From NCBI GenBank assembly GCA_964483725.1, contig CAZACQ010000003.1, positions 1-58,430 of the forward strand: a stretch of 58,430 nt of DNA, written 5' to 3'. The position numbers and the translations under genes were made by a program. Numbering within the stretch: position 1 is the stretch's first letter; each line of letters begins with the position of its first letter. The DNA is from an uncultured Candidatus Peribacteria bacterium. GTDB lineage: Bacteria; Patescibacteriota; Gracilibacteria; Absconditabacterales; Absconditicoccaceae. This document shows positions 1 through 58,430 of this stretch, piece by piece. Under the pieces are notes generated by a model that was given only the letters and a program-made list of their open reading frames with translations, was not told the DNA's origin and searched no databases.

Positions 1-136
1 TAGTTTTTGCAATTGGAAAAACTTTACTTTGTAATTCAATACCTTAGTTTCAAATAAAATTTCAAAAAATAATGAATTATATAAAATCTATGAAGAATAT
101 ACAAAGTTTTTGATCTTACAAATTTGGATGAAAAAA

Positions 137-343
137 TTAAAATCAGACCTGCAAATAAAATAAAGAAGCAAAGGGCATAGGAGTAAGATAAGCAAAAAAT
201 CAAATCAAAATCAAAATTCATCAGATAAAATACCTAAACAAAAAATGAGATTTTAACAAAATAGAAAAAATGTAATTTTTATTTACAATTTTGAATATTT
301 TATAAAGATCTTTTTTGATTTTCCTATTAAGTTTGTTTTTCAT
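137..343 (-). CDS. small basic/hydrophobic membrane protein (hypothetical)
   Basis: Code-25 ORF from ATG 343 to TAA 137 (68 aa, MKNKLNRKIKK...FIGGILILIGFF...) with 4 in-frame TGA. It overlaps the alternative ORF 24..221, so only one of the two can be real. Confidence 0.3.
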
Positions 344-402
344 ATTTAGTAATTTTTTTAATAATTTAGAAGTCATTATAAATATATAATAAAAATAATC
401 AA

Positions 403-440
403 TAAAAAAAACTCCTCCACTAGTATACTAGCAAAGGAGT
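403..440 (-). terminator. Rho-independent terminator of the GC-rich ORF
   Basis: The minus strand reads CTCC-TTTG-CTAGTATACTAG-T-GGAG followed by T8. The hairpin begins 15 nt after the TGA at 455..457. Confidence 0.6.
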
Positions 441-454
441 AAAATGTATATATC

Positions 455-727
455 TCACAAAGCAAGCGGGATTTTTTTGAATCCCGGCTTAATGCCCGTG
501 ATTTTGTTGATCATCCTGGCTGAGCTATCATTGCCAACCAGAATTCCTCCCGAATCACCACAGAATACTGGCATTCCTGCATTGTGCAGGAAATCACGAG
601 AAGCATTCCTCATCCTCCTCATGGAGAGGAATCTCTGGATGTCTTCAAAGGTGATATCACCTTCGAAGTGGTACACATAGGTGCATGCTTCCTTGCACGC
701 TGCATTGATTTCACGGAGATTATACAT
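455..727 (-). CDS. GC-rich, foreign-looking 90-aa protein of unknown function (standard-code stop TGA at 455; extends to TAG 428 under code 25)
   Basis: ATG at 727 is preceded by AGGAGG 6 nt upstream. There is no in-frame TGA and all 8 Gly use GGN. The ORF is visibly GC-rich compared with its flanks. Sequence: MYNLREINAACKEAC...GDSGGILVGNDSSARMINKITGIKPGFKKIPLAL. No family recognised. Confidence 0.6.
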   Translation of the reverse strand: MYNLREINAACKEACTYVYHFEGDITFEDIQRFLSMRRMRNASRDFLHNAGMPVFCGDSGGILVGNDSSARMINKITGIKPGFKKIPLAL

Positions 728-761
728 GACACACCTCCTGGTGTTTTGTGTAAGGATTTTT

Positions 762-789
762 CTTATAATTATTTTTTTCTAAAAGTCAA
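762..789 (-). promoter_or_regulatory. sigma70-like promoter for 455..727
   Basis: The minus strand has TTGACT (789..784), a 16-nt spacer and TATAAG (767..762). The SD AGGAGG lies at 739..734. Confidence 0.5.
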
Positions 790-860
790 ACATTTTTTAT
801 TTATAAAAATACAGGTTAAATATAATTAATATTTTATAAATATTAAAAACCAAGCACTAA

Positions 861-2333
861 TTATTTCAAAGATAAGTTTTGAAACATAGAGTATGAACTT
901 ATTTGTTCAGATAAATCAAGAATTTTTCAATAATATTGTTCTCATTCTGTATCATTTAGAAATTGTTTCCAATTTGTTCAATGATTTTGAAGTAATCTTC
1001 ATACCCTACCTTGTCATCTATTGTATGCAGTAAAAACTATATCATTTATATCATATTGATCAGAATTATAGTTTTCAAATTCTGAATACAAAAATAGTAC
1101 ATAATCAAGACCTCTTTCAATATTTTCTTTTGGATTAAAAGGATTAGTTGTCTTATCAAAAATATAATTAAACCTATCATCTCAATTTGTAGCATCTCTT
1201 CACATATAGATATTTTTAGTAGTTTGAGTTATTCATATCACTCAAGTATGAGAAATATTATAAGTTTGAAATTTAGACTCTAGCATTATCATTCAATTGA
1301 AAAGTTGGATAAATTCTCATATATCAATATATTGCTCAATTTCAGATCTCCTTGTATATATAGCATTTGTAATATAATCATTTAGTTCTAAATAGTTTTG
1401 AAATCAAACTTCATTAAAAGAATGTATTTGTTTCACTCTCAATCAAGAGATTAAATCATTTATAGATCTTTCTTTAGAAATTTCCAAAAACTCTTCTCAT
1501 GAAAGTGATGAAAAATAATCTCTAGATACATTTATCCTATGAAGTGTTGCTAAATTATCAAATAATTTTGATATATCATCATCATATCAAACAGAATAAT
1601 CTATTGTATTTGTCAAAGCATCTATTTCATTTACAATATATTCTCTTACATGATAAAGTGAATCTAATCATTTTATAGTATCAAGAGTTTCATTAAGCTT
1701 ATTTTCTAGTTTTTTTTGATATACTTCATCATCAAAATAAATAGGATTTATAGGATTACTACTATATTTAACAGTATTATCAATTGCATTCTTGAAAGCT
1801 TCAACATAATCTTGATTTATTTCAATTTGTGATTCTTTTTCATAATGACGATTATACATATCTATATTGATATCTTTATCAAAGTAATCATAAAAATATC
1901 AGTTGAAACTTGAATTATAATACAAAACATCTCATGGTAATACTAAGTTATTAGATCTTTGGAAATACAAATGTCATTCATTTAGATAAAGACCATTGGT
2001 GTTTAAAAATCTTTGTACTTCTCTTTCATCAGAACGAGATATACCAAATTGCCTTAAGATTTTATAAAATCAATCTCAATTTGAAACTTGATAAAATTCA
2101 AAATCATATATATTCAGATTAAACTCTTTGTAAGCATCTCTTTCTCTCAAAAATTCTTCATCCAATTGATAGTCATCAGTAGAATCATATCTTCATTGAT
2201 CTAATAAAGTTACAATATCATCACTTGTTTTTTTTGAAATTTCTGATACTCAATCTTTTTCTGGTCAGTCTGAACATCAAATTGATGTAGAAAGTACTCC
2301 TGCTGCCAAAATTCATTTTAGTTTTTGGTTCAT
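861..2333 (-). CDS. lipoprotein with C-terminal lytic transglycosylase (SLT/GH23-like) domain
   Basis: ATG 2333 to TAA 861 (490 aa). The N-terminus MNQKLKGILAAGVLSTSIGC carries a lipobox. The C-terminal SHTGVIGITQ ... AYNRGQGRV matches the SLT S..G..GLMQ and AYNAG motifs only when TGA is read as Gly. Confidence 0.7.
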
Positions 2334-2479: not shown

Positions 2480-3118
2480 ATGACAGAAGAAAACAAGAAT
2501 AAAACTAAAGAAAATAACGAAACAGAAGAAAATACAGCTAAATCATGAGATTGAGAAAAAAAACAAACTTGAAATTCTCAAAATGAGGACAATAAAATAA
2601 CACAAGAACACAAACAAAGAGTAATTAATGACCTAAAACAAACAGCAAAAGATATGCCTATGTTGGTAAGATGAGCATTCAAACCTGTAATTTCTTATGT
2701 AGAAAAAAAATATGAAAATATGCCTGAAGAGAAAAGAAAGCATTTAGAAAAAATGATAAATGATATCAAAAAAGAATCAAATAAATGAATATCACAAGTT
2801 AAAAGTATGGTTTCATGATTTTTTGCAAAATGACAAGAAAAAGCTGAGGAAGCAAAAGAAGAGATAAAAAAAGAAGCAGAAGACAAAAAAGAGAACCTAA
2901 AAGATAAGGTTGAAACTAAGAAAGAAGAAGTTGAACAAAAAGCAGAAAATTTTAAAGAAAAAGTTGAAGACAAAAAAGAAGAGACAAAAGAAAAAGTAGA
3001 ATCAAAAACAGAAGAACTAAAAGAAAAAGCAGAAAGCAAAAAAGATGAATTAGAAAGCAAAGTAGAAGAAAGAAAAAAGAAAGTTGAAGAAAAACTAAGT
3101 AAAGATGATGAAAGCTAA
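2480..3118 (+). CDS. Lys/Glu-rich coiled-coil repeat protein (LEA/apolipoprotein-like)
   Basis: ATG 2480 to TAA 3116..3118 (212 aa). The C-terminal half is made of repeated K.EE.KEK.E units. There are 7 in-frame TGA in the N-terminal half. The track ORF 2695..3060(-) is its antisense shadow. Confidence 0.65.
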
Positions 3119-3524: not shown

Positions 3525-5243
3525 ATGCTAAACTTTGAGAACTTGAAAAATTTACAAAAACACATTACTTACCTACAAGAAATTATACAAAAAGAAGACA
3601 TTTTTATAGTTTGATGATCTATTAGAGATATATTATTATGATTTGAAAAAGACCCCAAAGACATTGACATCACAGCAGGTTGAAACCCTCAAGATATTTA
3701 TGAAAAAATAAAAAAAGAAGATATTTCAATATTCAAAACGGATAAATTTGGTACTATCACTATAATACCAAAATCACAAAAGTCTATAGAAAAACTTCAA
3801 TATGAATTAACTCCACTAAGATCAGAATGAAATTATGAAGACTTTCGTCATCCTTGAGAGATAAATTGGACTAGTGATATTTTATTGGATAGCAAAAGAA
3901 GAGACTTTAGTATTAATTGTATTTATTATTACTACTGCCAAATAGATATCCAAACAGAATCTAGGAAAAAAATAAACAAAGAAAGTGAATTTCACAGAAT
4001 ATTGGATCATGAATGATATATCTTCCTAAGAGACAAGAACTGTTTGATCATCAAAGATAATGACACAATAGCAAAACTTTTTAATGATGCAAAACTTGAT
4101 AAAGATAAATTAAAAGAACTTACAAATAAGTGATATTTTTTGGATAATGATGAAAAATCAGGTTATTGAATACAAATAATAATTGACCCAGCTTGATGAA
4201 TGCAAGATTTGATAAGTAAGAAAATTAAGGCAGTATGAAATCCTGATGATAGATTCCAAGAAGATGCACTTAGAATTATTAGATGAGTAAGAATACCAAA
4301 TATTCTAAACCAGAAAATAGAAAAGAAATTTAAATCCGAATGATTGAAAGAATTAAAAACTTTTGATTATGATACACATACATGGAAAAGTATGAAAAAG
4401 AACTTTTTCTTAGTACAATTTATAGCAAAAGAAAGAGTCAAGGATGAAATAATGAAATCATTCAAAGCTAATAATCCTTTTGGATTTATAGTTTTATTAG
4501 ATGAATTAAATATTTTAAAATATTTGTTTCCAAGTTTTTATTTATGTAAGAATTCAGCACAACCTGTAAGATATCATGCATTAGATACTTTTGCTCATAC
4601 ACTAATGACATTTTACCATGTACAAAAAATAAATAAAGATACTATAGTAAGATTTGCTATGTTATATCATGATGTATGAAAACCTGATCAGTATTATTAT
4701 GCATCAATATGATTAGAAAAAGAAGAAATAAGAAAAATGCATGGAAGTTATGTAAATCATCCAATATCAGGTAAAGATATGGCAATAAAAGATTTCAAAG
4801 CTTTATGATTTTCAAAAAAAGAAGTAGAAGAAATATGATTTTATGTAAGAGAACACTTACTAATTTGAGAAGTTTTAAGTGCAAATGAAGAAAACATTCC
4901 CAAAAAAATAAAAAAACTACTATCAGAAATATGATACAAAAGACTATTGAATTTGGTAGACATATGCATAGCAGACAGACAATGACAGTACAATCCTCTA
5001 CAGTCAAGCAATATCCAACCACTTAAAAATCTAAAGAACTTGATAAAAGATATTTACAAAAAACAATGAGAATTTTCACAAAAAGATTTAGCAATAGATT
5101 GAAACGATATAATAAAAGAACTTGGAATACAAGCTTGACCAGAAGTTTGAAAAAAAATAAAAAAAGCCTTGGATTGGACGATCCAAGACATTAAAAATAG
5201 AAATAATAAAAAAGCTATTATAGATTTTCTAAAACAAAATTAA
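3525..5243 (+). CDS. cca: CCA-adding enzyme / poly(A) polymerase-family tRNA nucleotidyltransferase with HD domain
   Basis: ATG 3525 to TAA 5241..5243. The whole frame was checked codon by codon and is free of TAA/TAG (572 aa). Motifs are VGGSIRDILLG..DIDI, RRDFSINC and YHDVGKP (HD). Confidence 0.8.
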
Positions 5244-11651: not shown

Positions 11652-12785
11652 ATGAAAGAAAGTAAATTAAAATTTGAAGTAATAAAAAAAAGCTGAAAAG
11701 CTAGAGCATGAAAAATAAAATTAAATTGAAAAGAAATAACTACTCCAGTTTTTATGCCAGTAGGGACAAAAGCTACTATTAAATCTATAATACTTGATAT
11801 GTTAAATGACCCAAAATACACATGAACAGATAAAAAAATATGAATAATATTAGCAAATACATTTCATTTATATTTAAGTCCTTGAGAAAAAACTGTGAAA
11901 CATTTTTGATGAATACATAAATTTGAAAATTGGGATGGATTGGTACTAACTGATAGTTGATGATTTCAGGTTTTCTCATTATGATTAGACAAAAGAAGTA
12001 GCAGAAATAAAAAATTAGTACAAGTAAAAGATGATTGAGTTTGGTTTAAATCGCCCAAAGACTGATCTGAACACATTTTTACACCTGAAAAAGTAGTAGA
12101 TATACAGTGAGATTTATGATCAGATATTATGATGGTATTGGATGTATGTAGTCCAGTCCACTGAAATAACAAGAAAAAAACTGCAGAACAAATGCAACTT
12201 ACTCATAAATGGGCAAAAAAAGCTTTTGATTATTTTTGAGATAAATATAATGATTTGAATTGAGTTCTTTTCCCTATAGTACAATGATGACTTCATAATG
12301 ACTTGAGACTTGAATCACTAGAATACTTAAAAAACTTTGCATGGGATGGTATTGCTATATGATGAGTAAGTGTATGAGAAACAAAAGAAGAAATGTACCA
12401 GGTAGTTGATTGGCTAAGCAATGATTTACCAGAAGACAAGCCAAGATACCTTATGTGAGTATGAACTCCAGAAGACCTTAAAGAGACCATCTATCAATGA
12501 ATAGATATGTATGATTGTGTATTACCTACTAGACTAGCTAGACACTGAGTAGCTTTTCATAGTAGTTGAAAAAAACTAAGAGTAAAAAATTCACAACATA
12601 AGCTAAGTAAAGAAAGTTTGGATAATAATTGTAGTTGTTTTACATGTAGAAATTTCACAAGATGATACCTAAACCATCTATTCAAAGAAAAAGAAATGCT
12701 AGTTGCAACTTTATTATCATTACATAATATTGTACATTTGCATAATCTAACAGAAGAAATAAAAGAAGATATTATTTCTAAATAA
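11652..12785 (+). CDS. tgt: queuine tRNA-ribosyltransferase
   Basis: ATG 11652 to TAA 12783..12785 (377 aa). Motifs are TPVFMPVGTKATIK, LANTFHLYLSPG, PRYLMGVGTPEDL, DMYDCVLPTRLARHG and CSCFTCRNFTRGYLNHL. Confidence 0.9.
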
Positions 12786-13388: not shown

Positions 13389-14189
13389 TTGGGGAAAGAA
13401 GATATAAACTTGATTGAAAAAAAACTAAACTGAATATTAAGAAAATACTGAATAGATAATGAAGAAATACTTGAAAATATACTAGAACAAATTACTTGAG
13501 TCGATATAACAGATAAAGAAATTGAAGATACAAAAGAAGAATTATCAAAATACGAATTTAAAATAAAAGAACTGAAGACACACTATGATAAATATAATAA
13601 ATTCCAAGAGAACTTAAACTCCATAAAAGTTAAAGAATATTTTGATGGATTTGAAGAAAAAATGAATGAAAATGATATAAACTGAAAGGCAGTATTAGAA
13701 GAAAATATTAAAAAGTGGAAAAATGAGATCAAAAAACTTGATTTAAATAATGAAAAAAAATACCTTAGTATTGATAAAATAAATGATTATCAAGATAAAT
13801 TAAGCTCACTAAAAGATAATTTAGCAAAAGAATACCTAAGTATTGAAAATGATCTAGAAAATATATTAGCTATCAAAAAAGAAATAGACAAGCATGAATA
13901 TAGTGCATCAGATACATTCTCTAGTATAGAAAGTAGAATAATAAAAGAAAATAATATATCTCAATCAAGTATTATTAATAAAGAAGTCCTTATTGAGGAA
14001 TTAAAAAATGAATTAAGAAAAAAATACAACAAATCAAGAAGATGAAACAATAGAATAAGTGTATCAACTAGAAGAAGATGAGTGTCTTGAAGAAGAAGAT
14101 CATGAGGATGAAGTAGAAGTAGGAGTAGATCTAGATGATGAGGAGGAGGAAGAAGAAGATGACGTTCATGAGGAAGAAGTAGATTTTAA
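13389..14189 (+). CDS. coiled-coil protein with Arg/Gly/Ser-rich C-terminal tail, putative TTG start
   Basis: It is in the same frame as 12831..13361. TTG 13389 (first in-frame ATG only at 13662) to TAA 14187..14189. The last ~50 aa read RRGNNRISVSTRRRGVSGRRRSGGGSRSRSRSRGGGGGRRRGRSGGRSRF. The end overlaps the convergent ABC gene by 4 nt. Confidence 0.45.
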
Positions 14190-15979: not shown

Positions 15980-16447
15980 TTAAAGTTTTGATGCTATATA
16001 GGCCAATCATAAGGCATCAGCTGCATCATCATATTCAGGTAAATTCTCTAATCAATATATTTTCATTATAAAACTTTGTACTAATTCTTTATTAGCTTTT
16101 GAATTTCAAGTTATATATTTTTTCAATTGTATTGGAGTATATTCAAAAATTTGTACATTATTTTTTAAAAACAAACTTATCAAAGCTCATCTTATTCAAT
16201 AAACAAACTCTGCATTTGCTTGATTATATTTAGTAAAGAACAACTTTTCTATTGATAATTTATCTATAGTATATTTTGTAATCATATCTTCAAAAAAATT
16301 TATTATCTTTAATATCCTTTGAAACTGATCTTCTCTATTTGGTGATTTTTGATCAAGTAATAGTATTCATGCATCCTCAATACTTAAATCTTTTTCTATC
16401 AGAGAATATCATAACTTTCTAACTCAGGGATCTATTCACAAAATCAT
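15980..16447 (-). CDS. ruvC: crossover junction endodeoxyribonuclease RuvC
   Basis: ATG 16447 to TAA 15980 (155 aa). Sequence MILGIDPGVRKLGYS ... DDAADALGLAYIA. Confidence 0.85.
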
Positions 16448-18283: not shown

Positions 18284-18300
18284 TTCATAAAAAATATATA

Positions 18301-18639: not shown

Positions 18640-18655
18640 TTTAAATTAATAAAAT

Positions 18656-18710: not shown

Positions 18711-20213
18711 TTAATTTATTTCTTTTAATGTCTCATCAAGTAAAGATTTTAATGTAGTTTCAATTTCTGAACTTAACTCTTTCTTTTCAAGTATCATATC
18801 TGTCAGTCACTGATAAGTAGAATCCATTTTTTCAAAGACTTTTTTCTCGTAGTCTAGAATTTGATTAATTTCCATACTATCAAAATATCAATTAGTTCAT
18901 GCATAAATAATAACAGCTTGTTTAGCAAAACTCAAAGGCGAATTAGGAGCTTGTTTCAACATTTCTACCAATCTTTCTCATCTTTGAATTTTTTTCTGAG
19001 TTGCTTCATCCAAATCAGATGCAAATTGAGCAAAAGCAGCTAATTCTCTAAATGTAGCTAATTCTAATCTTAATTTTCAAGAAACTTTCTTAACTACTTT
19101 TGTTTGAGCTGAACCTCATACTCTACTTACTGATAATCAAACATTAATAGCTGGTCTTACTCAAGAATTAAACAAGTCAGTTTCTAAGAATATCTGTCAG
19201 TCTGTAATAGAAATAACATTAGTAGGAACATATGCAGAAACATCTCATGCTAAAGTTTCAATAATAGGAAGTGCTGTTAGAGAACCTCATCAGTTTTCTT
19301 CATTTAATCTAGCAGCTCTTTCTAATAATCTAGAATGTAAATAGAAAACATCTCATGGATAAGCTTCTCTACCTGGAGGCCTTCTTAATAGTAATGATAT
19401 CTCTCTATATGCATTAGCATGTTTACTTAAGTCATCATAAACTATCAAAGAATCCTCTCATTTTTCCATAAAATATTCTCATAAAGTACAACCTACATAA
19501 GGAGCAATATATTGTAAAATAGCAGGATCACTTGCTGGTACATTAACTACAACAGTATATTCCAATGCTCAAGAATCCTTAAGTGTTTTAAGTATTCTTT
19601 TTATCTTAGAGTCCTTTTGACCAATAGCAACATAAATACATTTCACTCAAGTTCATTTTTGATTAAGTATAGTATCAATTGCTACAGTTGTTTTACCAGT
19701 TTGCCTATCTCAAATAATTAATTCTCTTTGTCACCTTCCTATTGGAACCATACTATCAATAGCTTTAATTCAAGTTTGCAATGGAGTATCCACTGATTTT
19801 CTTTCCATAACTCAAGCAGCTATTTTTTCCAAAGGAGAATCCTTTTCAGATTTAATTTCTCAAAGTCAATCAATAGGATTTCATAATCAATCAACTACTC
19901 TACCTAAATAGTCTTCTCATACTCAAACACTAAGTACTTTACCAGTTCAAGAAACAACCTGTCATTGTGCTAGTCTTGAATAATCTCATAAAATAAGAAC
20001 TCAAACAGAGCTTTCTCACATATCTAAAACTAATCATTTTGTAGAATCCTCAAATTCAACAATTTCTGAAAACATACAATTATCTAATCATACAACAGTT
20101 GCAACTCAGTCTTTGATTTCTAATATTTCTCATTTTTGTGAAAAAGAATCTGTCAAATCAACAGAATTAACTTTCTCTTCAATCTTTTTAATAATATCTT
20201 GATGAACTGACAT
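18711..20213 (-). CDS. atpA: F0F1 ATP synthase subunit alpha
   Basis: ATG 20213 to TAA 18711. All 501 codons were translated row by row (500 aa). Motifs are [39 protein letters not shown] and ITDGQIFLE. About 45 TGA fall on conserved Gly positions. Confidence 0.95.
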
Positions 20214-20718: not shown

Positions 20719-21210
20719 TTATTTATTAAATTCTTGAATAAGTTTTTTAATATACTCATCTTGAAAATCTACATTTCTATCAAATAATTTTGTCAAAACA
20801 GTCTTTGTTGTATCTTTAACTGACTGCTCCCAATTATTTTCAAGATCTTTTTTGATTTTTTCTGATTCAATTTGAGCATTATTAACAATATCTTCAGCTT
20901 TTTTATTAGCAGAACTAATAATTTTTTCTTTTTCTTTTTCTGCTAACTGATTTGCTTCTGCTAATATTGACTCTTTATGTTTAGATGCTTGTTCCACTAG
21001 CTCTTCATACTTTTTATTTGCAGATTCTATAATATTTTCATATTCTTCATCTGCATTTTTAAGCTTATTCATAAGTTCCTTTCTTTCATTAATAGCAGAT
21101 ATTATTTTATCTGCAAAAAAATATTTAAAAAGAAAGAAAAAAATTATTAAATTTACAACTTGCAGTGAAACATTAAACAAGATCTGAAGAACATCATTTT
21201 CAAAAGACAT
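20719..21210 (-). CDS. atpF: F0F1 ATP synthase subunit b
   Basis: Track ORF of 163 aa, ending in TAA and free of TGA. An N-terminal TM helix is followed by a long charged helix. It lies between atpE and atpH. Confidence 0.8.
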   Translation of the reverse strand: MSFENDVLQILFNVSLQVVNLIIFFFLFKYFFADKIISAINERKELMNKLKNADEEYENIIESANKKYEELVEQASKHKESILAEANQLAEKEKEKIISSANKKAEDIVNNAQIESEKIKKDLENNWEQSVKDTTKTVLTKLFDRNVDFQDEYIKKLIQEFNK

Positions 21211-21284: not shown

Positions 21285-21488
21285 TTATAATATCATAATA
21301 GCAACAACTAAAGCAAAAATAGCTGTAGCTTCAGCAAAAGCAATAGATAAAATAGCTGCTGGCAGATACTTCTTTTCCATTTCAGGATTTCTAGAAAGAG
21401 ATTCCAACCAAGCTTTACCAATCATACCAATACCAATACCAGCTCACAATACTCAAACCATAGCAATACCAGCTCACAAAATTTCCAT
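21285..21488 (-). CDS. atpE: F0F1 ATP synthase subunit c
   Basis: ATG 21488 to TAA 21285 (67 aa). Sequence MEILGAGIAMVGVLGAGIGIGMIGKAWLESLSRNPE...AEATAIFALVVAIMIL. Three TGA complete the GxGxGxG motif. Confidence 0.9.
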
Positions 21489-23690: not shown

Positions 23691-25607
23691 ATGAAAATAA
23701 TATTATGACTAGTTATTACTATTTTATTACATCTGTCAAACACATATGCTAATTGGACATATCCAGTACAAGAAGTTAGTAAACCTAGTGTTGATTGTAA
23801 ATTTCAGCCTTGGAGCGAACATTCACAAGATTGTAAAGTCACATTACCAATAATAGAAAATGCAAATTATACAAGATATAAAGACAATATGGATTATCGT
23901 TTGATTTATTCTGTACTTTGGTGAGCAACATATAAATGAGGTTGGGATGTATGATATTGATGACATTGATGAATAGACATAGCTTCTGCTCAATGAACAC
24001 CACTTTATAGTATATTAGATTGAGTTGTAGAAACAGCAAGTTTTTTGGCTTGATGGTGAAATACAGTAGTTATAAGACATGAGCACAACTGATGATATAT
24101 CAGATCTGTATATACACACATGCATAATATTCAAACTAATCAATGACAAAGAGTAAGTGCTTGAGATAGAATATGAACTATATGAACAACTGGTAACAGC
24201 CGGGGTAACCATGTACATTTCCAAATTGATATAAATCAAGATTGAAATCATCCGTGGTATTATCAAAATTGTTGATGATCAAATGCTGATATAGTTAATT
24301 CAGGAGAATGCAGAGACCAGTTACTTAGAAATACTACTGACCCTATTAGATTTTTGGAAACAAATTGAGCATCATTAAGTCTACCAACAACAGAAGAAGA
24401 AGAGCAACAACTAGTTGAAGATACAAAACAAGAAGAAGAGAAAATTACACAAGATGAAATTGAAACTAGAGAAAGAATAATGCTTACTGAACTTGAGTTA
24501 TTCTTGGCTAGATATCCTATGGAAACTAGATCAAATATAAGTGCAAACACAATGAGTGTCTGAGAAAGTTGAACAATAGATTTAAGTGTAAGTTATAGAA
24601 ATAGACCATTCAACTGATCTTTACCAATGTCTCTTGAAATGGAATACAATGATGATATTATTCAAGTATCACCTAGAAAATTGATTGCAATACAAGATTG
24701 AAATAGAGAGATAAATATTAATGCAGTATCAGAATGAGAAACAAGATTAATAATGAAAATTTGATGAAAAATAATTGCTAATTACTTAATTAGAGTTGTA
24801 GAAGACTGAACTGTATTAAATGCAGCTAGATGAATAATTTATAATTTATGAACAAATTATATTTGATGAGAAAATGATTGATTGGTAGTTATGCAAGATG
24901 CAAATAATAACAATATAGTTTCTGTTCCTTATGAATGAAATTTCACTCTTGAAACAAATGAAAATTTAAAAATCTGTAATCCTGAAATAACAAGCAGGAG
25001 AGAAATTCAAAGTATAAATAACTTTGAATGCTGACCAGAAAATTGGGAAGATAGTATTAGTTTTTCATATAATGATACACTAGAATGACTATTTATATAT
25101 AAAATTAGAGCAGTAAATACATGACAGTGAATAATAGAGCTATATAAATGAAATGATAGGATTTGAAGAAGTAGTCCAAAGAATATTCAAAGACCAGTAG
25201 ATATAAACTTCAATACTGAATATAAAGATAGTATTTTAAACTGATTAAAAAGATGATTTATTGATAATTCAAGAAACTGAAATTTTGCTCCAGGTTTCAG
25301 AATTAATGAACAAGATGCAGCAAGCTGGATAAAAAATACATTCCCAGTTGCAAGAGATTATGAAGGATCTAGAGCTAAACAAATGACAAGATTAGATTTT
25401 ATGAAACTTTTAAATGAGATGACATCATTGGAAGCTCAGAATCTAGAGAGACAGTTTCGGGATATTGGTCAAGAGAATAGAAAATATTCAAACATATTAT
25501 TAGACTATTGAGTAGAACTAGATGATCATAGTCATAGATATTTTCAACCAGATAAATGAATAACAAGATGAGAAGTAGCCCATATATTAAATAGCCTGAG
25601 AAGATAA
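23691..25607 (+). CDS. secreted M23 (LytM-type) metallopeptidase with long C-terminal extension
   Basis: ATG 23691 to TAA 25605..25607 (638 aa). Signal peptide present. Motif region is GGHGGIDIA..GTPLYSILDGVV...GNTVVIRH...YTHM...GDRIGTIGTTGNSRGNHVHFQID. The C-terminal end ITRGEVAHILNSL is SLH-like. Track ORFs 24015..24550(-) are antisense artefacts. Confidence 0.85.
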
Positions 25608-37026: not shown

Positions 37027-39318
37027 CTAGTCTCTTATTCTTAAATTAACAGTACCAACAACTCTAGGATAGTCTTCATATTCAACAACAACTCTAATTC
37101 TATAATCTCAAGCTTCATCATATGTAGTCGTAGCAGTTGCATAAGACCTTCACTCTCATGAAGCTGTTCTTCAATTTCAAAAATCCCACTGTATACTATC
37201 AATTGATCAATCAGTAGAAACTTCAAACTCTACTCTATCTCAAACTCTAGCACTTTGTGTTGGATGTGAAGGTATATTTATATCAGCAGATCTTTGTTCT
37301 CTTTGCACAAAAACCTTCTGACATATTTCTTCTGATTCTCATTCTCTAGTCCTAACTGTAACACAAGCATCATATTCTCAATCACCTCTATCGGAATCAA
37401 AACTATATGTATGAGAAATTTGTCATTGATTAGAATTAGATATGGTTTCTCAGTCTCAAAAATCCCAAGAATAATAAACTATACTATCATCAGGGTTAGT
37501 AACTCTAGACGCAGAAGCATCTAAATTTACTCTTAAAGGCTCTTCTCAGGAATCAGGTGAAAGCTCTAAGATAGGTATAACTGGCAATTCTTCAACAATA
37601 ACATCAATATTTTCACTTACCACATTTCACCTATTATCTTCCACTTCTATCTCAATATCATAAGATCATTCTTCTCATCTAAATTCGTATTCAAAAGAAT
37701 CATCTCATTCTGATAAAAATGTTTCTCAATCAAACAATACAGATAAATCATAAGAAGCATCTGGATCAGGATCAATATCATCAACCACTACTCTAATATC
37801 CGTTGGTATAACATCAATTTCTAACTCAAAATCTTCATTCAAATCTACTTGAGTATAATCTAATTCAGATCATCTTTTCAAATATATTGAATAATCTATT
37901 TCATAACTATCAACTAAAGAATAAAATTCCTCCGATTCACATGTTCAAACTTCTCAGTCAGAAGTTTCATAAGATCAATATATAATATAATTTTCTCATT
38001 CTGATAATGGGACATTAAAACTTCAATCTCTTGATGTTTCTTCTTGTTCTACAAGATCTTCTGAAAGATTAACAATTTCAATATCATAAGTTTGTGGTGA
38101 AGCAGATGCTGGAGCAGATACATCAATACTATAATTATTTCAAGATCTAGGATCATAAGAAATATTACAACTAGGAACTGATGATTCTTGTGTTCTAAGA
38201 GCTATCAAGTAATAATCATCTGAAATATCAGGAAGCCTAAAATGAACATTATTAAGTCTAGCATCTCTAAATGTATGAACCAAATTACTAGTATTTGATT
38301 GATCAACTTCTCAATCTCAAGTAAGATCCCAATCAACATTAACTTCTGGCAATCAAAGATCAGTAAACAATGATCAAGCATCAAACCTTACATTTGAAGG
38401 AGTCTGACCAATCAACATTTCAGTTCTTGATTGATTCATATCATATGATCATCAATTCACAGATATATTTATTTCTGAATCAAAAGACAAAGACATAACA
38501 TTCTCACTTAAAGAAGTATCTTGTCATTCCGACATATAATTAACTACAAGCTCTATATCATAATCTCACTGACTAGTATAAAGACACTCTCAGTCAAAAA
38601 ATCAACTATCTCAAAATATATTTCAAGATTTTTCTAGTGTCTGTCAATTATCACAATCAATCTCTAAACTACTTATATTTTGTACATTTCAAACTTCAGA
38701 AGGCAAACTATCTATAAAGACTCATTCATTAACCTGGAATCTAAAATATGATGGAGCAATTAATGGGCGCTCTCAAATTAGTTCAATTTCTCATCACTTT
38801 TTTAGTAAATATCAATTAACAAGATTGTCAGTAGCAATTTCTACTTCTCAAGTTAAATCATTAATATTAATAATACTTATTGTTCAAAAAACTAAACTAA
38901 CAAGCAAAAATATTCATCATAACAAAGATCAAATTATATATTTGAATTTTGATAATTTTACTGTGAAGAACTTATATAAATTTGACACCAAAAGGAAAAA
39001 AGAGAAAAAGAATAGTAATCAAAAGAAAAGAACAGCAAAAATCATAAGCAAATTTCTAACTGTCTCTACCTCAAGTCACACAGCTGATAAAGTATCAGGA
39101 TTAGTTATCACCCAATATAATGCTCAAATTGTAATAAGTAAAAATAAAAAGAAAAATCAAACACATCAAATTATAAATCATTTAATAGATATAGAAGATC
39201 ACCTTTTAACTTTATTTGTTTGATGTGTTTTAGAAGCCTGTCTATTTTGGTTCGTAGACTTATTATTATTAGACTGATTATTTACAGTACTATTGTTTTG
39301 TTTATCTTGTTCAGACAT
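37027..39318 (-). CDS. membrane-anchored PKD-domain surface protein
   Basis: ATG 39318 to TAG 37027 (763 aa). Three N-terminal TM helices. The C-terminal PKD repeats contain YYSWDFGDGETISN...HTY and IQWDFGNGRTASG...Y..AGDYRIRVVV. Track ORF 37041..37226 is an off-frame artefact. Confidence 0.75.
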
Positions 39319-39470: not shown

Positions 39471-41585
39471 ATGATAGAAAAATTACAAATAGAAGAAAAA
39501 AGCAAGAAATTTCTATGGGAATGAAAAAATTTTGAACTAAAAACATGAAAGTTAGCTAGTCAATCAGATTGATCAGTTGTTGTAAGTTTATGAGACACAT
39601 CATTATTAGTGACGGCAGTAATGAATGAAAGTCCTGATGAAGATAAGGATTTTATGCCACTTACTATAGATTGTAGGGAATCATTTTATGCAGCATGAAA
39701 AATTTGATGAGCAATATATATTAGAAGAGAATGAAAACCATCAGAAAGAACAGTCTTAGTTTCTAGACTTACTGACAGACCTATAAGACCTATGTTCCCT
39801 GAAGGTATGATAAACGATGTAGTGATTACAATAACTCCCCTAAGTGTAGATAAAGAAAATTCAATGTGAGTACCAAGTATAATATGAGCAAGTGCAGCTT
39901 TAAAAATGGCATGAATACCTTTTGAATGACCAGTATGAGCAGTTAAAATTTGATACAAAGATTGAGATTTTATAGTAAACCCTACATACAGTGAGGTTAA
40001 TGAATGAACACTAGAATTAACATTAGCTGGAACAGAAGACACTATTACTATGGTTGAATGTTGAGCAAAGGAAATACCTGAAGATATCCTTATAGAAGCA
40101 TTTAAAATATGACAAGAAGAAATAAAAAAAATTTGTAGTAAACAAAAAGAATTTTTGGAAAAATTTGAAATTGAAGAAAGAGAGATAAAAACAAATAAAC
40201 CAAGTGAAGATTTAATTTCATATATAAAACAATTAATTGATAAAGAAAGCTTGGAGGGTCTTATACCAAGTTGAAAAAAGGAATTTAACAAAAAGATTGA
40301 TAAAATAGAAGAAAAAGTATTATCTTTAGTAAATGAAAAAATTGAAGATAAAGAAAATAATATATTTACAAAATCAAAAGTAAATTCAGCTTTATTTAAA
40401 ATAGTAAAAGAATTCATTAGAGATAAAATATTAAACAAAGAACAAAGAGTTGACTGAAGAGAATTAAATCAGATAAGACCACTTTATTGTGAAGTTTGAC
40501 TAAATAGTAGAATACATTGAATATGATTATTCCAAAGATGAGAGACACAAGTATTTTCAGCAACTACTCTAGGTGCACCATGAGATGTACTATTGGTTGA
40601 TGATATGGAGTCAGATGCTGAGGAAGTTAGGTTTATGCATCATTATAACATGCCAGCATTTAGTACAAATGAAGCAAGACCTTCAAGAGCTGCTAGTAGA
40701 AGAGAAATATGACATTGAAAACTTGCAGAAAAAGCAATACTACCTGTATTACCCAATGAAGAAGATTTTCCATATACATTAAGAGTTGTTAGTGAAGTAT
40801 TTTCTTGTAACTGATCAACATCTATGGCAAGTGTATGTGCAAGTACATTATCTTTAATGGATGCATGAGTTCCTATTAAAAATCCTGTTAGCTGAATTGC
40901 TATGTGACTAGTAAGCGATTGAGAAAATTATAAAATTTTAACAGATATACAGTGAGTTGAAGATTTTACATGAGATATGGATTTTAAGGTTGCATGAACT
41001 AAAGAATGAATAACTGCACTTCAAATGGATATGAAAATAAAATGATTAAAAATGTCAGTTATTAAAGAAGCTATTTCTACAGCAAACAAAGCTAGATGAG
41101 ATATACTAGATTTTATGTTAGAAACTATTGATAAACCATCAGAAGAATTAAGTATACATGCACCTAAGATAACTACAATAAAATTGAAGCCTAGTCAAGT
41201 TAGAGAAGTTATTTGATCTTGATGAGCTAATATCAATGAAATAACTAAACAAACTTGAGTTAAAATAGACTTTAAAGAAGATTGAACTACAATAATTACA
41301 GCTAAAGACTCTGAATCAGAAAAACATGCAATCAAAATGATAAAAGATAGTACTTGGAACCCTGAAGTATGACAAGTTATAGAAGGTACAATAAATAGAG
41401 TTGAACAATATTGATTATTTGTAGAAGTATGAAAATGAAAAACATGACTTTGTCATGTAAAAAACTTATGAAAATGATTTATAAGTGACCCTAAAACACA
41501 GTACAAAGAGTGACAAAAAATTAGAGTTAAAATAATAGGTATAGATGAAAATAGTTGAAAAATTGAATTGAGGAAAGAAGAGTAA
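39471..41585 (+). CDS. pnp: polyribonucleotide nucleotidyltransferase (PNPase)
   Basis: ATG 39471 to TAA 41583..41585 (704 aa). Motifs are [30 protein letters not shown]...[11 protein letters not shown] and [14 protein letters not shown]. The C-terminal KH+S1 region contains [21 protein letters not shown]. Confidence 0.9.
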
Positions 41586-41915: not shown

Positions 41916-42461
41916 ATGAGATTTTTAATATTAATTATATCACTAATATTTCTTAGCTGATGCTTTGGTTGATGATACGAAAAAAAAGAAATTAGCTTCG
42001 AAGATAAGTTTACTATGAATATTAATGAAAGTTTTGATAATGTATGAAAGTGACAGTTTGATTGACAGCAGATTTCAAAAAAAATAATAAAAGCATTTTT
42101 AGAACGTGAACAAGATTCCGATTTTAATGATAATTTTATAGTTACAAAAAGAGAAATAAAAACTGAGGTTACTCCAGAAGTATTTTCTGAATGAAATTAT
42201 AAAAATATTCAAAGACAGATTACTTGACTTAGAAATATATCATGATTAAGAAAACATGAATTTACTTGTAATTGAAAAAATATTATATGATACTACTCAA
42301 TGTTTAATGTTCATCAATCTATATTTGACGAAGATACAAAATACTATTTACTACAGTATTATTTTATTTATAATGATAGATGATATATATTATCATTTTC
42401 TTCTAGTGATGATAGATATGATGAGTTTATAGAAAGTATTGAAAGTATATCATGTAAATAA
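41916..42461 (+). CDS. lipoprotein (181 aa)
   Basis: ATG 41916 to TAA 42459..42461. The N-terminus MRFLILIISLIFLSGC has a lipobox whose Gly is encoded by TGA. Confidence 0.6.
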
Positions 42462-45898: not shown

Positions 45899-46576
45899 AT
45901 GGACTGAAAACAAATAAATAATTCATTAAATTTGATACAATCTTATTATAGATTTTTATATTTATGACTTTTCCTAGAAGATATAATAAAAGAAAATGAT
46001 ATAAGTCAATTTGCAAAAGATGTAAATATAAAAACTTGAGAAAATACTTCTTTCAAACTTAAACAACAAACAATTCAAAGCTTATTGAAAGAAATATACA
46101 ATAATCCTGATAAACAAAACATATTTTGATACTTTACTCAGTTAACAATGTTTAGATGAATTTCTGCAACAATGAAAGAGTTAGTTGAAGAAGAAAATAA
46201 TTTTAAGAGTTTCTTACAATCAAGCTTAAAAAGTAAATATTTTGATTTTGAACAAATAATTAGATTTATAAGGAATATACTATCACATAATATAGATACT
46301 AATATTATTATAAAACAACAAGACTATGCTAGCCAGAAAATTTATTTACTATCAAGATGAAAACATATTGTTAATTTTAATTTTAGATACAAAAAAATTT
46401 TTTGACAATATTGGACATGAGACCCAAAATACTGAATAAATATGAAGATAAATTTTAAAAAGATATCTCATAACGATAAATTCTTTAATATAATAAGTTT
46501 ACATGATTTATTTTTATTGTCAGAATTATGCTATAATTTAGTTCAAATATATAAACACAAAAAAAAGAAAGCTTAA
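45899..46576 (+). CDS. Abi-like / HEPN-motif (Rx4H) protein
   Basis: ATG 45899 to TAA 46574..46576 (225 aa). It contains ...EQIIRFIRNILSHNID..., where RNILSH is an R-x4-H motif in a context resembling Abi_2/AbiD-type proteins. The family assignment is from memory, not from a search. Confidence 0.5.
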
Positions 46577-46592
46577 TAGCTTTCTTTTTTTT
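46559..46592. terminator. bidirectional intrinsic terminator
   Basis: AAAAAAAAGAAAGCT-TAAT-AGCTTTCTTTTTTTT. The TAA of 45899..46576 sits in the loop. The convergent gene 46591..49272 ends in the T-run. Confidence 0.7.
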
Positions 46593-52008: not shown

Positions 52009-52449
52009 TTAGTTAAAGAAACTTTTATTTGAATCGTTTCTTTTTTGCATAGTAGAATATATTATATCCATAATATTAGGATAAGATTTCAAAAAGGAAT
52101 CAAAAGCATCAACAGGAATTTGTCGAACATCACTATCTTGTATTGCAACAACAGAAGCCATAGCTTCAGTTCATTTTAGATAAGACATTTCTCAAAATAT
52201 TTCTCAGTCTCAAATAGTTCATAGAACTTTTGATGATAGTCAATTAGCTTTCCTAGCTTCTAATTTTCAAGATTTTAGTACATATATATATTCAGGTTTA
52301 GATCATTCAATAATCAAACGAGATCATTCCTGGTAAAATTCAAGTTTAAATGAATTTGATAATTCTAACAATTTGTCATCAGGAACATCTTTAAATATAT
52401 CAATTGATTTCAGCATTTTTAGTAATATATCATTTACAGATAGATTCAT
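52009..52449 (-). CDS. stand-alone cyclic-nucleotide-binding (cNMP/Crp effector) domain protein
   Basis: ATG 52449 to TAA 52009 (146 aa). It contains IFKDVPDDKLLELS...GTIGDGEIFGEMSYL. Confidence 0.7.
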
Positions 52450-52771: not shown

Positions 52772-53485
52772 ATGTTTTACAATGAAGAATTTATAATTAA
52801 AGATAATATGTGAAACAACTCATTTTCATATAAAGAAAGAAAAACTAATTGAAAAGCAGAAATAACAGTAGCCAAATTAGTTGAATGAAACACAAACGAC
52901 CTTAAAGTATGAAAAAATATAGCTTTTGAAGAAAAAGATTTTAACTGAAAAATTAAATGATATTATTGATTAGAAAATTTCATTAAAATTAAAAACTGAG
53001 ATAAAAAAATATATATATTTGACAATCACAATCATGCATTATATTTTTGGTATTTAGAACAAATTAAATGAAATATTGATAAAAAATCAAAACTAATACA
53101 TATTGACCAGCATAGTGATATGGAAAATTGAAAAGAATTTAATTACGACAAGCTTAACAAAGAAAATATCTGGAAATATACAAACTATGACTTAAATGTT
53201 TGAAATTATATAATTCCAGCAAAAAAACTTTGAATTGTTGATGAAATAGTTCAAGTAAGAAGCAATTATAAACTAAAAGAACTAAAAAATATAAAAATAA
53301 ATAAATCAAACACTATATTAAATATTGATATAGATTTTTGGGCTCCTGAAATGATTAGTGATAATGATTCAATATTAATAGCAAAGAATTTAATAAAAAA
53401 AAGTGAAGTAATAACTATCGCTACTTCACCATATTTTATAGATCAAAAGCTTGCTATAAATATTGTAAAAAAAATATTAACTTAA
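52772..53485 (+). CDS. hypothetical protein, possibly UPF0489-like
   Basis: ATG 52772 to TAA 53483..53485 (237 aa). It contains IYIFDNHNHALYFW...IHIDQHSD...NVGNYI...NIDIDFW. The family guess is from memory of motifs only. Confidence 0.5.
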
Positions 53486-55313: not shown

Positions 55314-55331
55314 TATTAGCTTTCTTTTTTT
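55298..55331. terminator. bidirectional intrinsic terminator
   Basis: AAAAAAAGAAAGCTA-ATAT-TAGCTTTCTTTTTTT. The dus TAA lies inside the hairpin. Its arms are nearly identical to those of the terminator at 46559..46592. Confidence 0.7.
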
Positions 55332-55719
55332 AGTTCCTAACAAGTTGAGTATTGGTTTGAATATGTATAACTCTATCATTAACTGAAAGTCATTGTGGCT
55401 GTCTACCTACATTGTTTTGCTTATAAGATGAATCTTCTTGAATATCTTTCCAAACATTTCTTTTTTCTTTTAATACATCCAATTGAGCCAAACTATGTAA
55501 AAACTTCTCTTCTTCCAATTTGTTTGTTTCTTCTCTTAAGAAATATCATTTAGTAGAGCTTATATTTACAAAATAAGCATAAAGTCATATTGTAAAAACC
55601 AAAATTCAAATTGTTGTAGCAAGCTTTAATTGATTTATAAGCTTACGATTTTTTCTAATTTTATTTTTAAAATCTATATAGTTTTTTGTCAAACTTTTAG
55701 TAAAAACAAACCTATTCAT
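55330..55719 (-). CDS. bitopic coiled-coil membrane protein, FtsL-like by position
   Basis: ATG 55719 to TAA 55330 (129 aa). It has a basic N-terminus, one TM helix (IGILVFTIGLYAYFV) and a heptad region. It lies directly downstream of rsmH, as ftsL does in dcw clusters. Confidence 0.5.
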
Positions 55720-55737
55720 CCCAGCATGTAGTTAATA

Positions 55738-56613
55738 TTATAAAGCCTTTATTATTCTTAATTTTGCACTTCTAGAAGCCTTATTTGATAAAACCTCTTT
55801 ATAATGTGGCTTAATAACTTTTTTATTAACTAATTCAAAGTTATCACTAGCAGCCAAATCTTTAAATTTATACTTAACAATTCTATCCTCTATACTATGA
55901 TAAGTAATTATATAACATTTTCATCACTTAGAAATATATTTTTCAAAATTATCAAGAAAGATTTCTAAATGTCACAATTCATTATTAACTTCAATTCTAA
56001 TACACTGGAATATAACCGATATTTTTTTGTTTCACAATCAAACTGATTTTATTAAATCAACTAATTGTGAAGTTGAATATATATGTTTTTGTTTTTTTCT
56101 TTCACTTATTATTGTATCAGCAATAAATTCAGCAAACTTATCAGAAAAATCTCAATATTTTTTAAAGATTTCTGATAACTTAGATCTTGAATAAGTATTT
56201 ATCAAATCATATGCTGTAAAATTTGAGTTAGAATCAAACCTCATATCAAGCTTACCTTCTCATTTTATTGAGAATCATCTATCAAAAAGTTTGAAATGGT
56301 CCATATTTACTCACAAATCCAACAAAATTCAATCAAATGTATCAAATCAAGATTCATTTACTATTTCATCTAATTGACTATAACTCAAATTCAACAATTT
56401 ATATCTTCAAGAATATCATGATAAATACTCATCAGCTTTTGACAACATACTCTGGTCCCTATCAACACCCACAAAGAAAGCTTTATTATTATCTAGTTTT
56501 GAGATTAGATATTGACAGTGTCAAGCATGTCAAACTGTTCAATCCAAGAACTTATCTAATTTATCTGGCAAATTTTGATAGATTTCTTCAGCTAAAACAG
56601 GAACATGTCTCAT
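55738..56613 (-). CDS. rsmH: 16S rRNA (cytosine1402-N4)-methyltransferase
   Basis: ATG 56613 to TAA 55738 (291 aa). Motifs are HVPVLAEE, DGTVGHAGH, LLDLGVNMDHF..DRGFS, FQCIRIEVNNEL, TYHSIEDRIVK and SRSAKLR. Confidence 0.85.
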
Positions 56614-56845
56614 ATTTTTCGTAATTTTGACAAAATAATTAAGTTTTCAACATCATTTCAACATAGTTTCTCAAAAACCAGATAACCTCTATATAATCAT
56701 ATTAGACAAAATGTCAAAACATTGTTAAAAAATAGTAGTTGACATCTTAAAAATTATAGATATGCTCTAAATATTATACTAAAAACTTGATTTTTAAATT
56801 TTATATTTTATAATATATTTTATATTTAATAAATAATAACAAAAT

Positions 56846-57718
56846 ATGAAAAGATTAATAGTCCTATTATTGATAAGTTTATCAATGTTAGCATATACAA
56901 CAAATGCATATAGTCCAAGCGAGTCTTGGAAAAAAGAAGTTCAAAGATCAAATGACACACTAAATAGTATTCTTGAAAATAAAAGCTTAGACTACCTAAA
57001 AAATATTTTGCCTAGATTTAAGGCTGCTAAAGAAAACTTTGAAAATAATAAAGATATAAATTATGCTATATGAACCCGAACAAATACTATAAAAGAAAAA
57101 ATAAATAATTTTGAAATCGAAAATAAGGACAAGAAAAAAACAGAAGAAACTCAAGATAGTTATAAAAATTCTAGCTTTAAAGAAAGTTTTTTTGAAGAAT
57201 ATTGACAAGATATAGTTAGTGACTTAGAAGTTTCAGATAGATGCACAAAATACTTTGATGAAATTGATGAAATAGCTAAAAAAAATGATTTCCCAACTTC
57301 AATTATTATTGCAACATGGTATAGAGAATATTCTTGTATATTATGAAATCCTGATAATTGATGGTGACCATTCCAGATAACTTCTCATAGTTATGAACCA
57401 TGAGATATTAGTATAGAAGAATTCCAAGATAGTATTCAAGATTTTATAGATTTTTCAAAAGCAAAGTGGAACTACTATGATAACAATCCATCTTTGAGAG
57501 AAAGATTTGGGTCAGAAAGCATAAATATTAAATATAATGAATTTACATTAAGAGATCTTAGACTACAAAGTATATTATACAATTGAGTATTAGAATCTAC
57601 TGAATTAAAAACAAATATGTATGCAAATACAAATTTAAATGAAAATTTAAGTTGAGCAAGAGATTGAATAGTTACAAAAACACTTAAGATCATTAATTGG
57701 GAATTAGAAAATAATTAG
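56846..57718 (+). CDS. secreted protein with lysozyme-like/SLT-like C-terminal domain
   Basis: ATG 56846 to TAG 57716..57718 (290 aa). The signal peptide is MKRLIVLLLISLSMLAYTTNA. IIIATWYREYSC...GWGPFQITSHSY resembles the catalytic Glu and G.GLMQ of transglycosylases. Confidence 0.55.
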
Positions 57719-57735
57719 AAATTAATTTTTATAAC

Positions 57736-58430
57736 TTATCTTTCAAGTCTTATCAAGCCCAAACTACTCAACTTATTTTCCATAAACTTAATATACTCAT
57801 CTACTGAAAAATCATATTCCGATAGTGAGTTTATCACATCCAAAGATTTATCTACACTACCCTTTTGATGGATATTTTTACTCAAATAAGATTTGATTTT
57901 TTCAAACTCTCAATTTCAGATGATATCATCAATTCATCATAGCTCTTTGTCCATATTTTTATAAATCCAAGAGGCATACATATTACCCAAAGAATAAACT
58001 GGGAAATAACCAAATTCAGCAGCTGACCAATGAATATCTTGTAGTACTCACTCCTTTAGAGTTTTTGGCTGTATTCATAGATAATCATAATATTTTTGAT
58101 TCCAAACTTTTGGCATATCATCAACTTTTATTTTTCAAGTTAGAACTTCTCTTTCCATTTCATATCTTATGATAATATGCATATGATAAGTAAGTTGATC
58201 AGCACTTGTTCTTATCAAACTTGATTGCACATTATGAAGCAATTTCACAAAATCTTGATAATCATATCAATCTAATTCTTCAGGAAAATATTTTAATAAT
58301 TTCGGAAAAAATCTTTCCCAAAACTTAGTATTTTTGGCTATATACAACTCCCATATCATACTTTGAGACTCATGCAAAGCCAAAGATCTAATCTCACCAG
58401 CAGGCAATCAGTATTGTGATTTATCAGTTC
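57736..58430 (-). CDS. M32 carboxypeptidase (Taq-type), C-terminal part; 5' end beyond the window
   Basis: Stop is TAA 57736 and the ORF is open to the window edge. It contains ...[10 protein letters not shown]..., [44 protein letters not shown]. Confidence 0.8.

Follow-up and report, generated by a model that had tools for sequence, protein, structure and literature searches.

UGA as the probable main glycine codon in a 58-kb chromosomal stretch of an uncultured Absconditabacteria (SR1) bacterium

The stretch of DNA studied here (contig CAZACQ010000003.1; 58,430 bp, 25.1% GC), called the window at its full length, comes from an uncultured bacterium whose proteins become readable once the codon UGA is given a meaning. 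Our analysis supports the interpretation, already advanced in a preliminary description made from the letters, that UGA stands for glycine and not for tryptophan (Trp) in this organism. It is the established code of SR1 and Gracilibacteria, found here in a new and apparently unannotated member, and not a new phenomenon. We regard it as very probable that the window is part of the chromosome of an SR1 bacterium in which UGA would be the main glycine codon, decoded by a transfer RNA with the anticodon UCA (tRNA(UCA)), and in which CGA, possibly also CGG, would probably be read as Trp. The UGA = Gly code is attributed to Rinke et al. 2013, as that work is cited in PMC8629427 and PMC8080830; it has been described in SR1 and Gracilibacteria with criteria based on the tRNA and on release factor 2 (RF2) (PMC8629427) and in Candidatus (Ca.) Vampirococcus lugosii (PMC8080830). 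In a BD1-5 bacterium, which is not the organism of the window, proteomics found glycine at UGA in 40 peptides and Trp in 1 (PMC4032931). The window shares with genetic code table 25 (SR1/Gracilibacteria) UGA as glycine, UAA and UAG as stops, UGG as Trp and a low GC content, and nothing in it differs from that table at UGA. Our results leave unchanged what is established about the SR1 code.

Reading frames and the residue encoded by UGA

Under the standard code (table 11), the whole window contains two stop-to-stop frames of at least 200 amino acids (aa) and none of at least 300 aa. When TGA is made sense, these numbers rise to 42 and 22, with a longest frame of 1238 aa. The corresponding controls, in which TAG (2 frames of at least 200 aa, 0 of at least 300 aa) or TAA (5 and 1) was made sense, did not rescue open reading frames (ORFs). 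Only three standard-code ORFs reach 130 aa: one of 163 aa (20719..21210), which is atpF and encodes a protein without any glycine, one of 132 aa (38825..39223), and the longest, of 250 aa (39686..40438, minus strand), which lies antisense within pnp (39471..41585). In a greedy map of non-overlapping ORFs with TGA read as sense, 94.6% of the window is taken up by 59 ORFs, of which 44 end in TAA and 15 in TAG; UAA and UAG remain stops. Two ORFs of this map (376-732 and 18258-18620) are probably spurious. Protein lengths agree with those of orthologues (638 vs 637-639 aa for the M23 peptidase and 285 vs 284-286 aa for PrmC; also AtpA, 500 aa, and PNPase, 704 aa). Convergent genes overlap at 3115-3118 (4 nt), 14186-14189 (4 nt), 26486-26496 (11 nt) and 53477-53485 (9 nt), and terminator-like hairpins were found at stops at 20 sites, where shuffled sequences gave about 8, so not at every stop. 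Such hairpins lie downstream of atpA (18694-18653, with a 19-bp stem), at 28785-28754, where the gene at 28785 has its stop at the beginning of the stem, at 46557-46594, a bidirectional one spanning both stops, and at 5189-5166, at or beside a stop. The preliminary description had spoken of genes shattered under the standard code with the longest ORF antisense to pnp, of about 60 packed ORFs ending in TAA or TAG once TGA is sense, and of stops often placed at terminators or at convergent overlaps of 4-11 nt; our counts bear out each of these points, "often" being a fair word for the last, and the pattern as a whole exceeds chance by far.

In these ORFs, TGA occurs in frame 923 times (5.01% of all codons), GGN 184 times (1.00%) and TGG 131 times (0.71%). 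TGA would thus carry 83% of glycine coding, an extreme usage that shows how far the reassignment of a stop codon can reach, making UGA the default glycine codon under AT pressure. Translation with code 25 gives proteins with 6.0% Gly and 0.7% Trp, and translation with code 4 gives 1.0% Gly and 5.7% Trp. Since a glycine content of 1.0%, as obtained without TGA, is implausible, reading TGA as glycine fits the composition.

Two comparisons suggested with the preliminary description, of translations by their Pfam scores and of alignment columns at TGA positions, both favor glycine. For the former, TGA was rendered as glycine (G), as a neutral residue (X) or as Trp (W) in ten conserved proteins. 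Over the 19 families compared, the bit scores summed to 2670 for G, 2236 for X and 1998 for W. G was best in each of the 19 families and W fell under the neutral X in all of them except PNPase, in which W and X tied (22.9 vs 23.1 bits). The scores with G, X and W were, respectively, 416.5, 357.2 and 323.1 bits for TGT, 172.1, 131.7 and 107.5 bits for RNase_PH, 158.8, 133.6 and 112.7 bits for Dus, and 282, 248 and 231 bits for ATP-synt_ab. For the latter comparison, the products of 15 E. coli K-12 genes were aligned to window proteins in which TGA was masked as X. Opposite 258 aligned TGA codons, E. coli has Gly 159 times, Ala 22 times and Trp never; opposite GGN codons of the window it has Gly at 37 of 52 positions, a share that does not differ significantly from that of TGA (Fisher p = 0.21). 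Among 21 aligned Trp residues of E. coli, four face TGG and none faces TGA. Summed over the TGA positions, BLOSUM62 scores for the 20 residues tried included +789 for G, +14 for A, -7 for S, -590 for W and -641 for Cys. These columns agree with the earlier statement that the code is not the Mycoplasma-type code 4.

The codons of relatives lead in the same direction. In atpA columns of four related genomes, the 37 TGA codons of the window stand opposite TGA or GGN in 27-33 cases and never opposite TGG; the atpA genes of the four carry 31, 13, 7 and 37 TGA, compared with 37 in the window. Over six genes of Ca. Absconditicoccus praedator, window TGA faces TGA 70 times, GGN 10 times and TGG 0 times. 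The PNPase, M23 peptidase and PrmC genes of the related contig L137 keep TGA at 47, 39 and 9 positions, respectively. This interchange of TGA and GGN at the same columns indicates that the two are synonymous in the clade. TGG remained TGG in 9 of 10 columns when the M23 and PNPase genes were compared with those of L137, although such columns are few.

The motifs that had been quoted for this reading are all present, with TGA at glycine positions (lower-case g in what follows). The atpA gene (18711..20213, minus strand; 500 aa, 37 TGA) contains GRgQRELIIgDRQTGKT, with TGA at 19731-19733 and 19710-19712, and E. coli has Gly at 27 of its 35 aligned TGA. In pnp (39471..41585, plus strand; 704 aa), E. 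coli has Gly at 37 aligned TGA, and 47 of the 52 TGA are also TGA in the L137 orthologue. The tgt gene (11652..12785, plus strand; 377 aa, 29 TGA) shows LMgVgTPEDL and ggLH, and ruvC (15980..16447, minus strand), identified by motif, Pfam and E. coli alignment, shows ILgIDPg. A CCA-adding enzyme / poly(A) polymerase family protein with an HD domain (3525..5243, plus strand) carries VggSIRDILLg, and the M23 peptidase (23691..25607, plus strand; 48 TGA) carries ggHggID; both were assigned by motif and Pfam. The PKD-domain membrane protein (37027..39318, minus strand; 56 TGA) has WDFgDg, with W encoded by TGG. Lipoboxes with TGA occur in a putative lipoprotein (LSgC; 41916..42461, plus strand) and in an SLT-domain putative lipoprotein (SIgC; 861..2333, minus strand; motif, Pfam). 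In atpE (21285..21488, minus strand; 67 aa), whose Gly-rich helix reads MEILgAGIAMVgVLgAGIGIG, the claim of three TGA in the GxGxGxG motif has to be adjusted: all three are glycines, but only one lies inside the strict motif and the two others just upstream. This gene favors GGN (3 TGA and 5 GGN, i.e. 5 of 8 glycine codons, p = 0.005) and is one of only two genes to do so, the other being the small GC-rich ORF described below, after which atpE, at 34% GC, is the next most GC-rich real gene.

Public entries could not serve as the yardstick here. In a public collection of 15 billion proteins (5.8 billion clusters), the closest AtpA match (P0001) is the window's own protein with W at all 37 TGA, evidently a code-4 translation. 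In the entry for PrmC (P0129; window gene 25639-26496), each TGA is likewise rendered as W, and at least 8 Trp, the same artefact, occur in 89 of the best 120 AtpA matches. Most of these 120 come from genomes that are recoded themselves and were translated with code 4 or 25, so that as evidence they are circular (code 25) or misleading (code 4); the amino acid was therefore judged from E. coli K-12 and Pfam. The collection holds the window's proteins as code-4 translations only, and the record itself is apparently unannotated. As these entries demonstrate, proteins of this clade are mistranslated in a major public collection. Annotation of the contig with table 11 shatters its genes; table 4 brings Trp to about 5% of residues and lowers homology scores by about 25% (from 2670 to 1998 Pfam bits), and structure predictions or family profiles derived from code-4 translations would be corrupted.

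Lineage of the window and decoding of UGA

The glycine translation of AtpA is 78% identical to that of A. praedator. PrmC is 64% identical to its counterpart in V. lugosii and 62% to that of A. praedator, those two being 66% identical to each other. The top named AtpA and PrmC matches were A. praedator, V. lugosii and metagenome-assembled genomes (MAGs) of Absconditabacteria. Gene order is shared with the A. praedator chromosome over M23, PrmC, a small ORF, a 207-aa ORF, an ECF sigma factor and DUF8128 (window genes 25-31). The housekeeping content comprises F-ATPase subunits a, c, b, delta and alpha, PNPase, SecDF, Tgt, RuvC, RsmH, Dus, HolB, DprA and 6S RNA. Best matches, synteny and gene content together indicate that the window is Absconditabacteria (SR1) chromosome and neither Gracilibacteria nor phage. 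The closest named relatives are the predatory or epibiotic SR1 bacteria A. praedator (CP054059.1) and V. lugosii (JAEDAM01); judged by these sequence comparisons, the source is an Absconditabacterium of the Vampirococcus/Absconditicoccus family, in a separate lineage roughly equidistant from both. The earlier assignment to Gracilibacteria or SR1 was thus of the right kind, and our comparisons narrow it to SR1. The same window protein sequence was also found in an independent Logan assembly (run SRR9330139), which argues against assembly error.

Decoding of UGA in this organism would follow the mechanism described for its clade. GTDB species genomes were searched for a tRNA-shaped pattern with anticodon UCA, a G1C2G3/C70G71C72 acceptor stem and U73. 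At least 120 loci were found, and among the matches listed nearly all belong to Gracilibacteria, Absconditabacterales or "Peribacteria" MAGs. Of the first 60 loci, 54 were also recognized by ARAGORN as containing a tRNA with the anticodon UCA, which the program calls "tRNA-SeC", judging by the anticodon only. Among the matches listed, the gene is nearly invariant in sequence across Absconditabacterales, where it comes first in a conserved cluster of tRNA-UCA, Tyr(GUA), Ala(UGC), Arg(UCU) and Glu(CUC) followed by infC-rpmI-rplT and tRNA-Leu(UAA). The cluster stands beside infC in both V. lugosii (tRNA at 3332-3405 of contig L132) and A. praedator (9272-9345 of L136), and also occurs on contig L135 (1277-1350) and at about 20 other loci. 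In Gracilibacteria, the tRNA(UCA) gene often adjoins tRNA-Gly(GCC) and tRNA-Arg(GCG).

Contig L135 was reached with V. lugosii IF-3 as query, and its IF-3 (P0122) is the only one sharing the database-source pattern of the window proteins. Its tRNA(UCA) reads GCGGGCA...AUUCAGC...UGCCCGCU, with G1:C72, C2:G71, G3:C70 and U73. L135 possibly derives from the same organism as the window. A tRNA(UCA) with a glycine acceptor stem, which also accompanies table 25 in its clade, is thus present in the relatives and is inferred from them for this genome. With the bacterial glycine identity set G1:C72, C2:G71, G3:C70 and U73, such a tRNA would be charged by glycyl-tRNA synthetase. From relatives and literature, a dedicated tRNA with anticodon UCA would decode UGA; RF2, which otherwise terminates at UGA and whose presence or absence serves as a criterion for the clade, would have been lost, as the clade literature suggests (PMC8629427). 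AT pressure (25% GC) would then have driven the replacement of GGN by TGA. UGA would no longer be a stop and would be the main glycine codon, with UAA and UAG as sole stops.

Some points weigh against this reading. About 38% of TGA positions stand opposite a residue other than Gly in E. coli; this share is the same for TGA and GGN (p = 0.21), which indicates divergence and not a different meaning. The 58-kb window contains no tRNA gene and no release-factor gene. The link between L135 and the window consists of matching database-source patterns and similar composition only: tetranucleotide correlation with the window is 0.981 for L135 and 0.982 for V. lugosii, similar values that do not have the power to separate organisms.

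The rival explanations have to be judged against the same data. If UGA encoded Trp, as in table 4, the ORFs would be just as open, since any sense meaning of TGA opens them equally, and the W-rich P0001, P0129 and 89 of the best 120 AtpA matches would seem to agree with it, yet these reflect gene callers and not the cell. Table 4 (Mycoplasmatales, Entomoplasmatales and several insect endosymbionts) resembles our case in that UGA is sense in an AT-rich reduced genome, but the amino acid there is Trp and in the window Gly. The alignment columns have already refuted it: Trp faces no TGA in E. coli (0 of 258; BLOSUM62 sum -590), and TGA never faces TGG in relatives. Moreover, Trp would rise to 5.7% and Gly fall to 1.0% of residues, W scores are lower than those of neutral X in 18 of the 19 Pfam families, and the tRNA(UCA) of the clade carries identity elements of Gly and not of Trp (PMC8629427). 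We therefore consider this explanation extremely improbable. The standard code, with TGA due to pseudogenes, to sequencing or assembly errors, to selenocysteine or to programmed read-through, has in its favor only that TGA is normally a stop. It is already refuted as well, and its probability is negligible, given 923 in-frame TGA in essential conserved genes that carry no frameshifts, the same protein sequence in the independent SRR9330139 contig, positions kept as TGA or GGN across relatives, and protein lengths that agree with orthologues; nor can selenocysteine make up 5% of residues, and the sum for Cys was -641.

An ambiguous UGA, mostly glycine but in some contexts a stop or misread as Trp through wobble of tRNA-Trp(CCA) or tRNA(UCA), seems very unlikely. 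The potential of U34 to wobble between UGA and UGG speaks for it (PMC8629427), as do the preference of atpE for GGN and one small ORF (458-727) whose frame meets a TGA at 455-457, a few residues at most from where its homologues stop, with the following TAG 9 codons away. Nevertheless, no gene of the window needs a TGA stop, since 59 of the 59 ORFs reach TAA or TAG near the end of the orthologue, and in the E. coli alignments the GGN glycines were not significantly more conserved, or more critical, than the TGA ones (p = 0.21). Some large phages use altered stop-codon meanings, and the window contains a TraG/VirD4-like DUF8128 ATPase at 30106-32541, so that a recoded bacteriophage or mobile element may also be thought of. 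The chromosomal housekeeping genes (F-ATPase, PNPase, SecDF, Tgt, RuvC and 6S RNA) and the synteny with the complete A. praedator chromosome leave this idea next to no probability.

CGA and CGG as possible tryptophan codons

A second layer of recoding, missed by table 25, probably exists in this clade. A reassignment of CGA and CGG from Arg to Trp in Absconditabacteria was predicted with Codetta by Shulgina & Eddy 2021 (PMC8629427). That prediction is a genome-wide inference, and our comparison involves a handful of columns only. The window contains 8 CGA and 6 CGG, three of the latter in a spurious ORF, that is 14 of 18,417 codons, so the meaning of these codons, either way, touches very little of the coding sequence; other Arg codons are AGA (407), AGG (85) and CGT (25). 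This rarity (4.3 CGA and 3.3 CGG per 10,000 codons) lies inside the published range (PMC8629427).

In the gene of the PrmC/HemK-like methyltransferase (25639-26496, plus strand), CGA at 26266-26268 encodes residue 210. This residue precedes the conserved EP..A..GG.DGL, and solved HemK/PrmC structures carry F, Y and F there. In 120 relatives, the column holds W 77 times, R 43 times and nothing else; the window shares its CGA with contigs L137, L138 and L139, and A. praedator has TGG. Another CGA (52123-52125, minus strand) encodes residue 109 of a cNMP-binding protein (gene 52009-52449), which aligns to a conserved Trp of PKG cyclic-nucleotide-binding domains. When CGA was read as R, W or X, the scores were 65.4, 69.3 and 66.0 bits for Pfam cNMP_binding and 169.9, 171.2 and 170.3 bits for PrmC TIGR03534. 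Over the relatives compared, 6 columns pair CGA or CGG with TGG or an aromatic residue, and 1 pairs such a codon with AGA. A TGG of the window DUF8128 gene faces CGG in A. praedator, two columns of atpB and also atpF show TGG of the window and of A. praedator opposite CGA or CGG, and in another gene a TAT of the window faces CGG. Two CGG codons of the M23 peptidase (24201-24203 and 25458-25460, plus strand) are conserved as CGG in three lineages, the window and two relatives, despite largely saturated synonymous sites.

Other data speak against this second change. The sample of CGA and CGG is tiny, and the preference of the two informative CGA codons for Trp amounts to no more than 3.9 and 1.3 bits. 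One CGG of the M23 peptidase (residue 171) slightly favors Arg, by 1.3 bits (Peptidase_M23: 90.6 bits with R, 89.3 with W and 90.3 with X), at a position where other M23 peptidases carry Thr; because the CGG codons of this gene lie opposite Thr or in an unconserved stretch, they are uninformative. The single column with AGA has CGG in L137 and AGA in the other two lineages. Neither tRNA(UCG) nor tRNA(CCG) was seen within the loci examined, in which no search was aimed at these tRNAs.

On these codon comparisons, we find it rather likely that CGA is read as Trp in this organism, and perhaps CGG is too. That all three departures from the standard code, UGA as Gly and both CGA and CGG as Trp, occur together appears somewhat more probable than its opposite. 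The code would then be table 25 with this change added; by itself table 25, which lacks the reading of CGA and CGG as Trp, probably describes the code of this organism incompletely. The statements that Trp remains TGG and that the code is table 25 accordingly need completing: TGG is Trp, but the list is probably incomplete, CGA and perhaps CGG being Trp-like as well. If true, the combination of UGA, CGA and CGG is one that has been predicted only computationally, is in no official table and is unchecked at the protein level. Independent codon-level support for the published and unverified reassignment of CGA comes from the window together with its relatives.

A GC-rich gene at the left end and other features

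The small GC-rich ORF mentioned above lies in an island (405-790, minus strand) of 45-48% GC within a genome of 25% GC. The ORF covers 458-727 (minus strand); with Gly for the TGA at 455-457, it would cover 428-727. A sigma-70-like promoter and an AGGAGG ribosome-binding site accompany it, and a strong terminator lies at 440-411. Its protein of 90 aa reads MYNLREINAACKE...CGDSGG..., and its glycines are encoded by 8 GGN and 0 TGA (p = 6e-7 against genome usage). The gene is code-neutral: the standard code would yield an identical protein but for the last 9 residues. Folding of the mRNA is much stronger than that of shuffled sequences (z = -7.7). A homologue of 93 aa with 43% identity, also without TGA, is found on the SR1-like contig L140, where its gene has 33% GC against 20% and a folding z of -4.5. 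Between the two, substitutions are enriched at third positions, and 21 of 37 identical residues use different codons. A pure non-coding RNA, which the folding might suggest, was rejected on this protein-coding pattern of substitution. The gene had no match in Pfam, PDB or Rfam, and an Rfam search of 405-760 was negative.

The atp operon (atpB-E-F-H-A, 18653-22298, minus strand) ends at the terminator at 18694-18653. No atpC, atpG or atpD follows atpA in the window, and in A. praedator, whose operon stops after atpA like that of the window, none was called there either; in three more distant relatives, atpA is followed by epsilon, gamma and beta, an unusual order. The approximately 370 nt between the end of a TPR gene and this terminator (18284-18652) hold only the low-complexity, Ser-rich ORF 18258-18620 (minus strand), which looks spurious, and Rfam gave nothing on 18284-18652 except chance matches on the terminator hairpin. 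A full-length 6S (SsrS) RNA (Rfam RF00013; 51.1 bits against a gathering threshold of 46.4) lies at 22330-22482 on the minus strand, between dprA and atpB. The DUF8128 membrane ATPase (30106-32541, minus strand; 811 aa) has a weak C-terminal TraG/VirD4 match and adjoins an ECF sigma factor, a pair that is kept in A. praedator (L142) and on L140. Of the last gene (57736-58430, minus strand), which encodes an M32 (Taq-type) carboxypeptidase, the window contains the C-terminal portion, corresponding to positions 278-489 of the 489 of the Pfam profile; since its 5' part lies beyond the end of the window, the TTG start in the gene map is an artefact.

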